From positions 14,633 to 78,632 of IMG/VR virus record IMGVR_UViG_3300029561_000002: a stretch of 64,000 bases of DNA. One strand, given 5' to 3'. This stretch comes from a virus. This document shows, piece by piece, positions 5,213 to 64,000 of the stretch (positions within the stretch are counted from its first letter, which is position 1; each line of letters begins with the position of its first letter). The position numbers and the translations under genes are program-made. Under the pieces are notes generated by a model. That model made no database searches. It was not told the origin of the DNA and worked only from the letters and a program-made list of their open reading frames with translations.

Positions 5213-5935
5213 ATGAATAACTTAACAGTAACAGAGTACAAGAATATTCGAGTGCTCACTACACAGCAGATTGCTGAAGCGTATGGAACTGATACAAAAG
5301 TTGTTTCATATAACTTCAACCACAACAAAGATAGATATGTTGATGGAAAACATTATATTTGCTTGACGGGAGATGAGCTTCGGGCGTTTCGTGAAAATCA
5401 CGATTTGCCAAGTAATCTCAATAAAATCTACCTCTGGACAGAAAAAGGAGCATTCCTCCATGCAAAGTCGCTGAACACCGACAAGGCGTGGGAAGTGTAT
5501 GACAGACTGGTGGATGAGTATTTCGATAAGCCCAAATTACCATCATGGACTATGGATGACAAAATTCAGATTCTTGCACAGGGAAACATCGAGCTTAAAG
5601 AAAAGATTGATGCTGTCAATGATGACTTGCAGGAGTTCAAAAGAGATATGCCATTGCTTGCATTGGAATGTCAGAAAATCACAAAGGCAAAGAACCAGAA
5701 AGTAGTTCCAATTTTAGGTGGAAAGAATGCACCAGCATATAAAGATAATTCATTGCGTCAGCTCGTGTACAGTGATATTGATGCACAGCTCCGCAGGGAA
5801 TTTGGTGTGAACACCTACAAGGCAATCAAGAGAAACCAGTGCGATATGGCAATAAAAATCATAAACGAATATGAGCTGCCGATGTATTTGAAAGATCGCA
5901 TTGATGATGCGAATGCTCAGAGTAGTTTCTTATGA
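5213..5935 (+). CDS. ORF6N/ORF6C-type antirepressor-like DNA-binding protein
   Basis: NIRVLTTQQIAEAYGTD..NFNHNKDRY..GKHY..LWTEKGAFLHAKSL matches the ORF6N (KilA-N-like) pattern. Confidence 0.75.
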   Translation: MNNLTVTEYKNIRVLTTQQIAEAYGTDTKVVSYNFNHNKDRYVDGKHYICLTGDELRAFRENHDLPSNLNKIYLWTEKGAFLHAKSLNTDKAWEVYDRLVDEYFDKPKLPSWTMDDKIQILAQGNIELKEKIDAVNDDLQEFKRDMPLLALECQKITKAKNQKVVPILGGKNAPAYKDNSLRQLVYSDIDAQLRREFGVNTYKAIKRNQCDMAIKIINEYELPMYLKDRIDDANAQSSFL

Positions 5936-13336: not shown

Positions 13337-14356
13337 ATGGATAAAGAAATTGTTGCAAATTTTGAGAATTTATATCGTTCTTACAAGAAGGTTAAGAACG
13401 GTAAGAAATTTAATTCAGGTACTGCAAGGTTTTCTAATATGGCTCTCGAAGGAATTCAGATACTGAAAGAACAGCTAGAAAATCAAACATATAGCATAAG
13501 CCCATATAATAAATTTCAGATTCATGAACCGAAAGAGAGGACAATAGAATCATGTGCATTTAAGGATAAAGTAGTCCAAAGATGTTTTTCTGATTACATC
13601 CTGACACCGAAACTAGAAAATATTCTGATTAAATGGAACACCGCCGGGCAGCATGGAAAAGGACAACATATGGCGATGAATGGATTAAGAGATCAGATGT
13701 TGGATTTCTATAAAAGAAATGGAATGAATACCTGGATTGTAAAATGCGATATTCATAAATACTTTTACAGCATAGACCATGAAATTATGAAAGACATACT
13801 GGACTACTATTTTGATGATGATTTTACGACTTGGATGAATCATTTATTTATCGACAGTACAGATAACCCGGGACTGCCATTAGGAAATCAGGTAAATCAG
13901 AAATACGCTCTTTTGCTGTTACATTCATTGGACCAAATGATAACGATTGAATTTGGAAATCCATATTACGGACGATATAACGATGATTTTTATGTGTTGT
14001 GCAAAACAAAAGACATCGCTAGAGAAATTCTTAAAGCGATTCGAATGATGGTTAAAAGTCTCGGGTTGGAATTAAACCCAAAGTCACAAATTGTACCGTT
14101 CCGAATGGGACTGTGTTATCTTGGATTCCACCATTACGTGACTGATGAGGGGAAATATATCAGAAAATTACGTGGTGACAGAAAAAGAAATACTCAGAAA
14201 AAGGTTCGTAGATGGGTTCGTGCAGTAAACGAAGAAAAGATGCCGGTTGAGAAATTCAACGAAAAGTACGGAGCATGTAAGAACCATATGCTACACGGAA
14301 ACTGCATCAAATTATGCCACAGTATGGATTTGGAAATTGAAAGGAGAATGAAATGA
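13337..14356 (+). CDS. DGR reverse transcriptase
   Basis: RT motifs including GRYNDDFYVLC (YxDD) and LPLGNQVNQ, which resembles the DGR-type (I/L)GxxxSQ motif. Size 339 aa. Confidence 0.9.
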   Translation: MDKEIVANFENLYRSYKKVKNGKKFNSGTARFSNMALEGIQILKEQLENQTYSISPYNKFQIHEPKERTIESCAFKDKVVQRCFSDYILTPKLENILIKWNTAGQHGKGQHMAMNGLRDQMLDFYKRNGMNTWIVKCDIHKYFYSIDHEIMKDILDYYFDDDFTTWMNHLFIDSTDNPGLPLGNQVNQKYALLLLHSLDQMITIEFGNPYYGRYNDDFYVLCKTKDIAREILKAIRMMVKSLGLELNPKSQIVPFRMGLCYLGFHHYVTDEGKYIRKLRGDRKRNTQKKVRRWVRAVNEEKMPVEKFNEKYGACKNHMLHGNCIKLCHSMDLEIERRMK

Positions 14357-31900: not shown

Positions 31901-32008
31901 TTGACTATTTAAGGAAAAAATGATATATTGTGATAGCTGGATGCTATTCGAATTTTTCGAATGCATTTTCTGGAGCGGTCTAACGTGCGTTGTTAGATCG
32001 CTTTTTTA
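31901..32008 (+). ncRNA. candidate small RNA unit 0 (promoter + two hairpins + terminator)
   Basis: TTGACT (31901-31906), 17-nt spacer, TATATT (31924-31929). Contains an ATGCTATTCGAA/TTCGAATGCAT hairpin and an AGCGGTCTAAC/GTTAGATCGCT + T6 terminator. No ORF. Confidence 0.5.
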
Positions 32009-32026
32009 TCGGTCCATCAATTTAAC

Positions 32027-32209
32027 TTGACTTTTCCAGCTGCATGATGTATTATGATTGTATCAGCTAGCAACAGTTGCTGGTTCTTAACGTACCATGA
32101 TTCCGTTGAGAGTCGCCACAGTCTACGGTGTGGTGTTGAGTTGAAAAGCATGTTTATAAGGATATGAAAAAAGGCTATTATATTTTTTGTAATGGTCTTT
32201 TTTTTATTG
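32027..32209 (+). ncRNA. candidate structured small RNA unit 1
   Basis: TTGACT (32027-32032), 17-nt spacer, TATTAT. A 5' hairpin, then the conserved core GATTCCGTTG (32099-32108) ... GTTGAGTTGAAAA (32135-32147), then a GU-containing hairpin + T8. Confidence 0.55.
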
Positions 32210-32385
32210 ACTTTTTCCTGTAATCGTGCTATATTATTAATCAGTAACACATGTGTTACTTTTCAACGGGCCACGATTCCGTTGGAAGTCGTTCCGATCA
32301 ATGGCGAAACGTTGAGTTGAAAAATATTGTTATATATTTGCTAAAATGCAAAAAGCGGGAAGGCGTGACAGATGTCACGCCTTTT
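32207..32385 (+). ncRNA. candidate structured small RNA unit 2 (paralogue of unit 1)
   Basis: TTGACT (32207-32212), 17-nt spacer, TATATT. Palindromic 5' hairpin, the same core at 32275-32284 and 32311-32323 with identical 36-nt spacing, and a GGCGTGAC/GTCACGCC terminator. Confidence 0.55.
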
Positions 32386-32602
32386 CACTGTTTTCTATAA
32401 TCTCTCGGTACATTCTTGCGCCGCCGTCCCATTCACTCCTGCCGTTCAAATACTCTTCGGCGGTTTCTTCGCGAACTTCTCCGGAATTTGCGAAAAGTGC
32501 AATTTTCCCGGTGCTTTTCTGCACAACCTCGGTTGCTGATAGTGTGCAAAAAGGCTCACAGCTTTCGCGGAAATTCTCCGCGCGGTCCATCAGCTCTATC
32601 AT
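32375..32602 (-). CDS. hypothetical protein (75 aa)
   Basis: Starts at MIELMDRAENF through an ATGA overlap with the upstream small ORF. Confidence 0.5.
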   Translation of the reverse strand: MIELMDRAENFRESCEPFCTLSATEVVQKSTGKIALFANSGEVREETAEEYLNGRSEWDGGARMYREIIENSEKA

Positions 32603-33186: not shown

Positions 33187-33267
33187 AATTTCCCTTTCTG
33201 GTCTGCCATCATCAGCACCGGGAGACCGTCCCGCGGTGGACGCCCCTAAAATCTGAGGCGTTTCGGC

Positions 33268-33477
33268 TTATGCTTCTATTGTTCGCCCGCGGCCGTCCAT
33301 AAATACCTCCCCGGCGGGCCACTGGCAAAGCTTTGCCCGTCCCTCTTTTACAACACGCTCATTATAGCGCCCGGCGTGCTGAAGTGCTTTGTATGTGATT
33401 GTTTTAGCGGTTTTGTTCGTGATTTCGAATGTTAAACCGCTTTCATAGTATCTTTTTCCGATTTCAAATTTTTTCAT
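33268..33477 (-). CDS. hypothetical protein
   Basis: 69-aa ORF in the same leftward operon. Confidence 0.5.
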   Translation of the reverse strand: MKKFEIGKRYYESGLTFEITNKTAKTITYKALQHAGRYNERVVKEGRAKLCQWPAGEVFMDGRGRTIEA

Positions 33478-36148: not shown

Positions 36149-36502
36149 AAAAAGGCCAGACCCGAAAGCCTAGCCTAATTTCTTTTAGTTATAACCAAAA
36201 CTATTATTTCAATCCGTGAGCCGGCGGTATCGCTACCGACTCCGCTGTAAAAGCATCCATTTACAGCGACTAATAAGAGTATAATATACTATTAACTAAA
36301 AAGCAAGAGAAAAATGGAAATTATGTAAAATATGCGATGACTGAATTTTAACAAAAAAGCCCTTGGATAATCTCCAGGGGCTTAAACTCTTTTTTTTGTG
36401 GCGGCTAACGAGGGGAGAACAGACCCGCCGCCAAAGCCTGTTAAATTATTCATAGCACACAAATGTTTGCTTTGTCAAGAAAAATATTTTTTTACTTTTG
36501 GC

Positions 36503-53392: not shown

Positions 53393-53634
53393 ATTTCAAT
53401 CCAAATGCTATGATGCAAAAACAAGTTGAAAGAATGATTTCTCAGAGGTTCGGAAGCGTTGATAACATGATGAACGATATGAGTAAATTTGCAGGAAACA
53501 ACCCAACATTGAAAAATGCTTTGGATCTGTACAAAAAAGGTGATACAGACCAGTTGCATCAGATTCAGCAAAATGTATTTAATGAAAAACACTTATCTCC
53601 AGATGGAATTATCCAAAAATTCCTTGGATTATAA
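53389..53634 (+). CDS. hypothetical protein
   Basis: ATGA-coupled 81-aa ORF. Confidence 0.55.
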   Translation: MNFNPNAMMQKQVERMISQRFGSVDNMMNDMSKFAGNNPTLKNALDLYKKGDTDQLHQIQQNVFNEKHLSPDGIIQKFLGL

Positions 53635-62656: not shown

Positions 62657-62681
62657 ATAATTAGAAAGGAAGGTGAAAAAG

Positions 62682-63845
62682 ATGATAAAAACAATTCGAG
62701 TAATGCTGATTCCAAATAATAAGCAAAAGACAAAACTCTTTCGATATGCCAATACTGCCAGATTTGCTTATAACTGGGCTTTGGCTAGGGAAATAGAAAA
62801 CTATGAAAATGGTGGTAAGTTCCTATCTGATAGTGATTTGAGAAAAGAATTTACACAATTAAAGAAAGCAGAGGAATATTCTTGGTTAAATAAAATTTCA
62901 AATAATGTAACCAAACAGGCTATTAAAGATGCTTGTAATGCATATAAGAGATTCTTCAAAGGATATTCGAAGTTTCCAAAATTCAAAAGTCGTAAATATT
63001 CTGTTCCATCTTTCTATCAAGACAATGTAAAGATTAAGTTTACAGAAACTCATGTAAAAGTTGAGGGATTTACAACCTCTAAAAGGAAAAATAAGCAGAA
63101 AATAAATTGGATTAGACTTGCAGAACACAATCGGATACCTACAGATTGTAAATACACGAGTCCTCGTATTAAGTATAATGGATTAAATTGGTGGATTACA
63201 GTAGGTGTTGAATATGAAGATTCTACTACTATTCCATCTAATGATGGAATTGGTATAGATCTAGGAATCAAAGATCTGGCTATTTGCTCTGATGGAGCTA
63301 AGTATAAGAACATCAATAAAAGTCAGAAAGTAAAGAAACTAGAAAAACAGAAACGCAGATTACAGCGTAGTATCTCTCGCTCTTACGAGAAAAATAAGAA
63401 AGGAGAAAGTTACTGCAAAACAAATAATGTAATCAAAAAGGAAAAACTTTTATTAAAACGAAATCACAGATTAACAAATATCCGTAAGAACTATTTGAAT
63501 CAGACTACATCTGAAATTGTAAATCGAAAACCAAGATTTATTTGTATTGAAGATTTGAATGTTAGTGGAATGATGAAAAATAGACATTTATCAAAAGCAG
63601 TTCAGAATCAGGGTTTTTTTGAGTTTAGAAAGCAGCTTGAACACAAGTGCAGCGATAAAGGAATTCAGCTTATTGTGGCTGATCGGTTTTATCCATCATC
63701 AAAGCTTTGCAGTTGCTGTGGAAACATTAAAAAAGACTTGAAATTATCTGACAGGATTTATAAATGTAATTGTGGAAATGTCATTGATAGAGATTTACAG
63801 GCATCTATAAATCTCAAGGCTTATGGAGAAAGATTTGCAAGCTAA
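62682..63845 (+). CDS. tnpB: TnpB (IS200/IS605-family OrfB RNA-guided nuclease), no TnpA nearby
   Basis: RuvC motifs GIDLGIKDLA, FICIEDLNVSGM and IDRDLQASINL are all intact. Zinc finger CSCCGN..CNCGN. AAGGAAGG RBS before MIKTIRV. Confidence 0.9.
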   Translation: MIKTIRVMLIPNNKQKTKLFRYANTARFAYNWALAREIENYENGGKFLSDSDLRKEFTQLKKAEEYSWLNKISNNVTKQAIKDACNAYKRFFKGYSKFPKFKSRKYSVPSFYQDNVKIKFTETHVKVEGFTTSKRKNKQKINWIRLAEHNRIPTDCKYTSPRIKYNGLNWWITVGVEYEDSTTIPSNDGIGIDLGIKDLAICSDGAKYKNINKSQKVKKLEKQKRRLQRSISRSYEKNKKGESYCKTNNVIKKEKLLLKRNHRLTNIRKNYLNQTTSEIVNRKPRFICIEDLNVSGMMKNRHLSKAVQNQGFFEFRKQLEHKCSDKGIQLIVADRFYPSSKLCSCCGNIKKDLKLSDRIYKCNCGNVIDRDLQASINLKAYGERFAS

Positions 63846-64000
63846 CACTAAAACGTTAGTGCAAATATGTACGGGTACGTTAATCCGGAATTTACGCCTA
63901 TGGAGAGTACAAGAACTTGTGAGTAGATAGATATTTATATCATCAAAAGCATACTCGTTGAAGTAGGAATGAAACATAGAAGTTTATAACTTTTTATAAG
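63700..64000 (+). ncRNA. expected omega (re)RNA region of the TnpB element
   Basis: Inferred only from established TnpB biology, where the guide RNA overlaps the tnpB 3' end and right end. Boundaries not determined. Confidence 0.3.

Follow-up and report, generated by a model that had tools for sequence, protein, structure and literature searches.

Tandem copies of a previously uncatalogued phage small RNA family and their possible relation to RNA anti-CRISPRs of type I-C

RNA anti-CRISPRs and the locus described here

The described systems closest to the RNAs considered here are the Racrs, RNA anti-CRISPRs in the form of promoter-driven solitary CRISPR repeats, of which RacrIC1 is an example (Camara-Wilpert et al. 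2023, PMC10651486). RacrIC1 is located 11 nt downstream of an AcrIC5 homologue, and Racrs are defined by an identity of about 90% or more to a known repeat (PMC10651486). Among the traits of a Racr are inhibition of the cognate CRISPR-Cas system, binding to Cas proteins and co-localisation with acr genes. Also comparable are the Cracrs, viral crRNA-like regulatory RNAs in which one repeat-like element is followed by a spacer-like segment and then by a terminator or a second degenerate repeat (10.1101/2024.10.29.618823); what defines them is that this segment agrees with a host cas or toxin promoter over 9-10 or more PAM-proximal nucleotides. Type I-C repeats, the substrate of Cas5c, have been described as an overhang of 2 nt, a stem of 7 bp with a 5-nt loop, and a second overhang of 11 nt.

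The locus lies in what we refer to as the window, the whole stretch of 64,000 nucleotides of viral DNA that was analysed, and it consists of three consecutive units on the plus strand (Table 1). Units 2 and 3 are tandem paralogues of a previously uncatalogued phage small RNA family. An earlier note on this DNA, made from the letters alone, had claimed that two of the three units are paralogous structured RNAs, and family membership and covariation bear this out for units 2 and 3. Like Racrs, these two units are virus-encoded and solitary, each has its own strong promoter, they contain a hairpin and handle of I-C repeat geometry, and an AcrIC5-type gene is present in the same phage; moreover, the family copies are solitary, sit on mobile elements and have a promoter within 250 bp upstream, as Racrs do. 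Unlike in Racrs, however, the likeness to a repeat is one of architecture, with low model scores in the family (2.9-16.1 bits), a search for a cognate array gave none, and a conserved 5' domain of ~50 nt (P1 and P2) is predicted to kiss the loop of the repeat-like hairpin. The accessible part of the table of Racr solitary repeats (SRU) does not contain the family sequence. The 3' half of the family RNA recalls a Cracr in having a repeat-like element, a segment of mostly 31-36 nt, a rho-independent terminator and its own promoter, and tandem units 2 and 3 recall Cracr arrays in that each has a different downstream segment, whereas the extra structured 5' domain has no counterpart in Cracrs and the segment contains a small conserved hairpin.

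By analogy with these systems, we tentatively propose that units 2 and 3 encode Racr- or Cracr-like decoys or pseudo-crRNAs directed against type I-C systems, with an extra structured domain, a reading that we consider the likeliest of those weighed here, though possible rather than probable.

Table 1. Coordinates of the three RNA units and their parts, of the AcrIC5-like region and of the single-copy chimeras of units 2 and 3 (window positions except for the chimeras, which are numbered within their own loci).
Feature	Position	Strand	Basis or details
Unit 1 promoter, TTGACT-17-TATATT, TG-extended	31901..31929	+	promoter scan
Unit 1 RNA, ~75 nt	31936..32010	+	hairpin 31939-31968, terminator hairpin 31972-32004, U run
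Unit 2 promoter, TTGACT-17-TATTAT	32027..32055	+	promoter scan; kept across subfamilies
Unit 2 RNA	32062..32205	+	model R1 match 32065-32151, 94.3 bits; fold; covariation
Unit 2 P1	32066-32084		
Unit 2 P2	32085-32111		11-nt loop UACCAUGAUUC
Unit 2 GU	32112-32113		
Unit 2 P3	32114-32135		loop GUCUACGG
Unit 2 tail	32136-32147		UUGAGUUGAAAA
Unit 2 P4	32149-32166		small hairpin
Unit 2 terminator	32167-32203		
Unit 3 promoter, TTGACT-17-TATATT, TG-extended	32207..32235	+	promoter scan; kept across subfamilies
Unit 3 RNA	32241..32398	+	model R1 match 32239-32327, 86.2 bits; terminator; fold
Unit 3 P1	32243-32260		
Unit 3 P2	32261-32287		loop GGCCACGAUUC
Unit 3 GU	32288-32289		
Unit 3 P3	32290-32311		loop AUCAAUGG, one C-A stem mismatch
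Unit 3 tail	32312-32323		UUGAGUUGAAAA
Unit 3 P4	32337-32352		
Unit 3 terminator	32357-32386		bidirectional
AcrIC5-like gene, 138 aa	35732..36148	+	Pfam PF22147, residues 7-42, 36.4 bits (cut-off 27), E 5.7e-9
Second small RNA	36153..36270	-	convergent on acrIC5-like gene; two hairpins, handle ACGGAUUGAAAU, ~29 nt, terminator 36176-36153
Chimera L012	1708-1809		crossover within shared core or tail
Chimera L007	1931-2032		crossover within shared core or tail
Chimera L019	1873-1974		crossover within shared core or tail

Membership, fold and covariation of the family

The suggestion of the earlier note that the RNAs belong to no known family held up, as there were 0 Rfam 15 matches at the gathering score on the plus strand at 32060-32330. 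At E <= 10 on 1.7 kb, Rfam 15 (ribozymes, riboswitches, sRNAs and CRISPR-DR repeats included) gave none on units 2 and 3, the isolated 48-nt element of P3 and tail also had 0 matches, and blastn against INPHARED phages and PLSDB plasmids found no similar DNA. The family is present in 76 IMG/VR contigs, and a covariance-model search of related loci, the check that had been recommended, found homologues with conserved structure in viral contigs. Pattern scans of IMG/VR turned up near-identical phages first and then, stepwise, more divergent ones. When the pattern was reduced to GTCG, the tail and the positions of the P3 loop, 66 loci were retrieved; they comprise 34 distinct sequences, among which the P2 loop CCAYGAUU, left unconstrained, is nearly invariant. 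The covariance model R1, built from 32 sequences, found 75 copies in 68 sources with scores of 61-107 bits, including divergent second copies in two loci (L083 and L086) that were missed by every pattern. A scan with no constraint on the tail gave nine further contigs, all of one subgroup and all carrying GUUGAGUUAAAA, in which UUAAAA takes the place of UUGAAA. One family copy lacking P1 (L101:7685-7763), with a rearranged upstream region and no good promoter, may be a decaying copy.

Within the 64 kb of the window, the shared core GATTCCGTTGRRAGTCG occurs exactly twice, at 32099 in unit 2 and 32275 in unit 3, and GTTGAGTTGAAAA matches exactly at 32135 and 32311 only, 36 nt from the core in both units, just as had been noticed from the letters. 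The core of the RNA is 87 nt in length and forms three hairpins, P1, P2 and P3, followed by a nearly invariant and apparently single-stranded 12-nt tail, UUGAGUUGAAAW, for which no consistent intramolecular partner was found across the family. All three hairpins are predicted by RNAalifold, with compensatory changes in 12 of the 19 pairs. In a model-based alignment of 36 distinct sequences, representing 932 pair cells, 95.5% of the cells are paired, compared to 85.3% in shuffles and at most 55% with partners slid, and the covariation score of 0.452 (0.248 in shuffles) was reached by none of 500 shuffles. Covariation is strong for P2 and P3: changes on both sides were seen in all seven P2 pairs and in five of the seven P3 pairs, and our overall count of pairs changed on both sides is 14. 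The 19-nt hairpin that keeps its pairing between the units, CCACA/TGTGG versus TTCCG/CGAAA, agrees with the original description, down to its one C-A mismatch in the window, and relatives carry CGGAA in that hairpin, which pairs perfectly with TTCCG.

The element TTCAACG had been thought to pair either with CGTTG inside the core or with the terminal GTTGAAAA, and to indicate alternative folds or a pseudoknot. The first of these pairings is a real helix, P2, but the second is restricted to the two window copies, and we reject it as an alternative because the P2 5' strand varies across the family while the tail stays constant. A pseudoknot does appear to exist, although the actual one is formed by the P2 loop kissing the P3 loop. 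The P2 loop, WWCCAYGAUUY, is complementary to the P3 loop, RUCWAYGG, by way of CC-GG and GAU-RUC, and this kissing helix is 93.7% paired across the family. In the two divergent copies (L083:11502-11589 and L086:612-699) the kissing pair A40-U62 is replaced by G-C, a compensatory change, and in L134 a U.G kissing pair becomes C-G. The predicted contact is therefore supported, though by few independent events. A full 7-bp kissing helix, in which A37-Y66 and Y38-A65 would covary, is partly supported, with 12/36 and 4/36 cells unpaired at these positions.

A compact pseudoknotted fold with invariant unpaired nucleotides could also be that of a new small self-cleaving or self-processing ribozyme, and there is both a type II hammerhead 0.9 kb away and a RAGATH-18 RNA in the same phage, the kind of neighbourhood in which Weinberg et al. 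(2015) reportedly found new ribozyme classes. Nevertheless, we consider a ribozyme to be very improbable, as ribozyme models gave 0 matches at E <= 10, the RNA is a stand-alone gene rather than part of an operon transcript, and it has no recognisable cleavage-site signature.

Transcription units and their genomic setting

The three sigma-70-type promoters of the form TTGACT-17-TAT(A/T)(T/A)T that first drew attention to the locus are present, and those starting at 31901, 32027 and 32207 are the three best-scoring promoter-like sites between 31000 and 34000, with 10/12 matches each; this 3-kb interval contains 11 such sites compared to 5.1 +/- 2.3 in shuffles. Folding confirmed the hairpin and T run that close each unit, and the terminator of unit 3 was also found by a terminator scan. 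The units had been described as free of ORFs; mechanical ORFs of 36-49 aa do overlap them. These ORFs begin upstream of the predicted transcription starts or within the variable P1 hairpin, and the substitution pattern over them is stem-compensatory and not codon-like. Unit 1 is a separate small hairpin RNA (predicted fold -29.1 kcal/mol, z -6.07) unrelated to units 2 and 3. Its conservation, at 91-100%, is confined to 11 loci of the closest subgroup, in all of which the family RNA follows directly.

A distance of 176 nt separates the family copy of unit 2 from that of unit 3, and neither shares its promoter or terminator with the other. Single-copy chimeras, in which the 5' part of unit 2 is fused to the P3 or the 3' flank of unit 3, were found in three loci (Table 1), indicating that the tandem copies recombine by homologous recombination. 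In spite of the divergence between them, all full-length subfamilies have a promoter of the type TTGACT/TTGATT, 17 nt, TATNAT that precedes the core by 2-11 nt, and in every copy the tail is followed by a subfamily-specific segment of 20-45 nt (mostly 31-36 nt) that includes a small hairpin, and then by an intrinsic terminator. The conservation of promoters across diverged subfamilies, together with the terminators, bears out the view that these are independent small RNA genes, the transcripts being predicted ones. The layout is not that of a riboswitch or cis-regulatory leader, since the RNA is closed by a terminator and, in all subfamilies, meets minus-strand genes that converge on it, nor is it that of a ToxI-like type III toxin-antitoxin RNA, as the units are separate, have no same-strand downstream gene and have variable neighbours.

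Both neighbours are small minus-strand ORFs convergent on the RNA in all subfamilies, and this, together with the bidirectional terminator of unit 3, raises the question of whether there is a plus-strand RNA gene at all or whether the conserved element is instead a cis element of the flanking minus-strand genes or a site that acts as DNA, for example an operator, origin or att site. We regard this as extremely improbable. G.U occupies 110 of the 932 pair cells, which would read A.C on the minus strand, and hence it is the plus strand that corresponds to the RNA. At full length, units 2 and 3 have fold z scores of -4.5 and -4.2 against shuffles, while their reverse complements fold no better than shuffles (z 0.2 and -1.3), and it is on the plus strand that promoters are conserved. 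Furthermore, the stems keep pairing and not sequence, which argues against a DNA palindrome recognised by a protein.

The window phage is siphovirus-like and temperate, with a serine integrase, a CI-like repressor, RecT, an SPP1-type portal, a GH25 endolysin and a tRNA array. Its early region also contains, near RecT, a gene for a reverse transcriptase (RVT_1) at 13337-14356 (+). The RNA cassette is located in a hypervariable island of small genes without assigned function, and it is present in some and absent from other near-identical phages, including phages with an identical integrase, showing that it is an accessory module. The type II hammerhead ribozyme (33197-33268, minus strand, 58.8 bits) is situated between small minus-strand ORFs of the same accessory island, immediately upstream of a 122-aa ORF (33186-32818). 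At 62673-63969 (+) of the window, a TnpB/IS605 OrfB gene with a Cas12f1-like TNB domain ends 52 nt before the RAGATH-18 match (63897-63969), which suggests that RAGATH-18 in the window is part of a transposon guide (omega/re) RNA. Transfer RNA arrays are present in all 12 relatives scanned as well as in the window, and in two subfamilies a ROOL RNA is found inside such arrays a few kb from the family RNA (L059:4870-5457 and L109:10976-11556). RAGATH-18 and ROOL, which are represented in Rfam and occur in Firmicute phages, are likewise phage-borne structured orphan RNAs of the same genomes, but they have no likeness to the family in sequence or structure and no Rfam match links them to it; similarity to RAGATH-18 was checked and there is none.

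The genes that flank the RNA differ between subfamilies (fam0, fam5 and fam38), Pfam and PHROG gave no function for the flanking ORFs, and no known acr gene is beside the RNA in the other subfamilies. We therefore reject a conserved protein partner, as the neighbours change by subfamily and have no Pfam or PHROG function. This bears directly on another possible role, in which the RNA is a protein-binding decoy or an RNP scaffold for a non-Cas factor, be it a host RNase, a chaperone, a defence sensor or a phage protein, and the kissing-loop domain is the recognised shape. The conserved loops and junctions and the supported tertiary contact would fit such a role, as would the RNA-rich nature of these phages (tRNA arrays, ROOL, hammerhead and RAGATH-18) and the presence of small, partly very acidic proteins without assigned function in the island, as islands of this kind are typical of counter-defence regions. 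Given that the flanking genes vary by subfamily, with no conserved partner among them, and that nothing ties the RNA to a specific factor, we judge a non-Cas decoy or scaffold to be unlikely.

Likeness to type I-C repeats, its limits and what may follow from it

The proposal that units 2 and 3 act on type I-C systems concerns P3 and the tail. Three traits are common to these and to a type I-C repeat, namely GU as the 5' overhang, a stem of 7 bp whose opening pairs are C-G and G-C/U, and a 3' tail with UUGAAA(U/A) at its end; in the P3 stem of the family the two opening pairs are followed by five variable ones. Real I-C repeats read GTCGC..GCGTGGATTGAAAT or ..GCGTTAGATTGAAAT, further examples being GTCGCGCCCCGTGAGGGGTGCGTGGATTGAAAT and GTTGCAACCC....GGGTTGCGTTAGATTGAAAT. 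The P3 loop, however, has 8 nt, is conserved and is predicted to be in tertiary contact, whereas the loops of I-C repeats have 4-5 nt and are variable, and the family tail, UUGAgUUGAAA, when compared with the I-C sequence UGGAUUGAAAU, has a 1-nt insertion relative to GGAUUGAAA. The family also differs in having AU-richer stems, in not being arrayed and in having no cas genes nearby, and the UUAAAA tail of the nine-contig subgroup alters a position that is invariant in I-C repeats.

To quantify the likeness we derived a covariance model, R2, from 20 repeats of type I-C. It fails to detect the window copies, units 2 and 3, which it did not report at E <= 10 in a search of the full window. When forced onto unit 2, it aligns end to end with P3 and the tail in the predicted register at 6.6 bits, and when forced onto unit 3 it gives 2.9 bits. 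Over 609 kb of family loci, its sole match at E <= 5 is the P3 and tail of the divergent L083 copy (GUCGCCAU..AUGGCG UUGAgUUGAAAU), with 16.1 bits, and by our own estimate the chance of a random top match falling in one of the ~75 modules is about 0.2%. The resemblance to an I-C repeat is thus more than an impression, yet it is weak and below the level needed for membership, and with the best family member at 16.1 bits the units are not Racrs by repeat similarity. The top R2 match in the window is elsewhere (14.8 bits, E 0.32), where an exact UGGAUUGAAAU at 53393-53422 (-) is preceded, at a distance of 17 nt, by a GU; there is no hairpin at this site, overlapping ORFs cover it, and the match is probably due to chance.

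Searches of 185,579 GTDB representative genomes, with a pattern in which the 8-nt loop was obligatory, and of JGI metagenomes found no array whose repeat equals P3 and the tail. Nor are units 2 and 3 themselves a type I-C CRISPR array, there being no cas gene among the window ORFs scanned. The exact 12-mer GTTGAGTTGAAA is, however, the 3' end of the repeats in genuine repeat-spacer arrays of two loci, L155 and L159. These are orphan mini-arrays (L155:680-780 and L159, reverse complement, 5297-5640) with a 30-nt repeat (...GCAGCATGGTTGAGTTGAAAC) and 36-38-nt spacers, and the plasmid-like elements that carry them also encode ParA, ParB, Prim-Pol and a Shedu-like gene, with no cas genes within reach. 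A set of very large phage contigs (L225-L255, e.g., IMGVR_UViG_3300023499_000220, 346 kb, and 3300029615_000411, 241 kb) contain numerous mini-arrays, separate from one another and consisting of 2-4 type I-C-like repeats (GTTGCAACCCRCAYGGGTTGCGTTAGATTGAAAT); a common leader of ~60 nt precedes every array, and one recurrent spacer (GTAGGTTCGAATCCTACCCGGCGCACCA...) resembles the 3' half of a tRNA.

Since P3 and the tail are repeat-like, the 3' half of the transcript is laid out as a one-repeat crRNA-like RNA, with a repeat-like element, a spacer-length segment and a terminator. In the decoy or pseudo-crRNA mechanism that we propose, an abundant transcript would engage the type I-C machinery of the host. 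The base of P3 would be the binding site, and perhaps the cleavage site, of Cas5c, the 3' product that begins with the tail would be loaded with Cascade subunits, and the RNA would serve either as a Racr-like decoy or as a Cracr-like pseudo-guide that represses cas expression, in both cases complementing the AcrIC5-like protein of the phage. Through its clamp on the P3 loop, the conserved P1-P2 domain would serve to stabilise the repeat-like module or to present it. The conserved small hairpin in the spacer-like segment counts against this mechanism. A search of viral contigs for a protospacer matching the downstream segment of unit 3 gave chance AT-rich matches only.

The same conserved tail can be read without reference to CRISPR. 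If the RNA were a trans-acting riboregulator, the tail GUUGAGUUGAAA and the semi-conserved AYRU that follows it would be the seed for a host mRNA or, less likely, a phage mRNA, and the hairpins would keep the RNA stable and give a chaperone or RNase a surface to act on. Many Gram-positive sRNAs are built, like the family RNA, of several hairpins and an unpaired stretch that is conserved, and the family RNA has its own promoter and terminator and no ORF; in addition, the G-to-A tail variant of the nine contigs would be tolerable opposite U. Prediction of targets in the phage, as the earlier note had advised, was not successful, as complementary sites for the tail or the P2 loop in the 64-kb window are not above those of shuffled queries, and a loop-loop tertiary fold with conserved loops exceeds the needs of a simple seed carrier. 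On this evidence we rate a CRISPR-independent riboregulator as somewhat unlikely, although both riboregulation of this type and protein sequestration are serious rivals of the I-C mechanism.

In favour of the I-C mechanism is the predicted AcrIC5-like gene, 3.4 kb downstream of the RNA units, which suggests that the window phage faces type I-C CRISPR. The C-terminal two thirds of its product are unannotated and the protein had no match among PDB sequences; a homologue of the C-terminal part alone is encoded ~1.9 kb from the family RNA in L128. A general linkage of the RNA to AcrIC5 was rejected on the basis of 30 AcrIC5-homologue loci without the RNA.

A second small RNA, encoded on the minus strand at the 3' end of the AcrIC5-like gene, repeats the layout of handle, ~30 nt and terminator. 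It has the canonical type I-C handle GGAUUGAAAU, its first hairpin begins with GUCGC like an I-C repeat, and R2 matches it at 36206-36236(-) with 13.2 bits (E 0.78). Its predicted fold has a z score of -3.8, and it is 91% conserved beside the AcrIC5-like gene of L195. Going by these features, the second small RNA is a better RacrIC/Cracr candidate than units 2 and 3.

It is also conceivable, although we think it quite improbable, that units 2 and 3 represent a composite RNA anti-CRISPR of a mechanistically new class and not a plain repeat mimic. P1-P2, by kissing the P3 loop, would then present, lock or self-process the I-C repeat-like hairpin and handle, and the RNA would trap Cas5c or Cascade or yield a pseudo-crRNA without the normal processing by the host. 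If this composite reading is true, searches based on repeat similarity miss such RNAs.

Our analysis adds a well-supported, pseudoknotted structured RNA to the small catalogue of phage non-coding RNAs, one that is common in a group of tRNA- and ROOL-carrying gut phages. If the link to CRISPR is false, the family is still a clear-cut orphan motif whose fold can be tested and which includes an invariant element of 12 nt. If the link is real, it would mean that RNA anti-CRISPRs can diverge far from host repeats and gain accessory structured domains, that similarity-based surveys undercount them, and that gut Firmicute phages combine protein (AcrIC5-like) and RNA inhibitors of type I-C.
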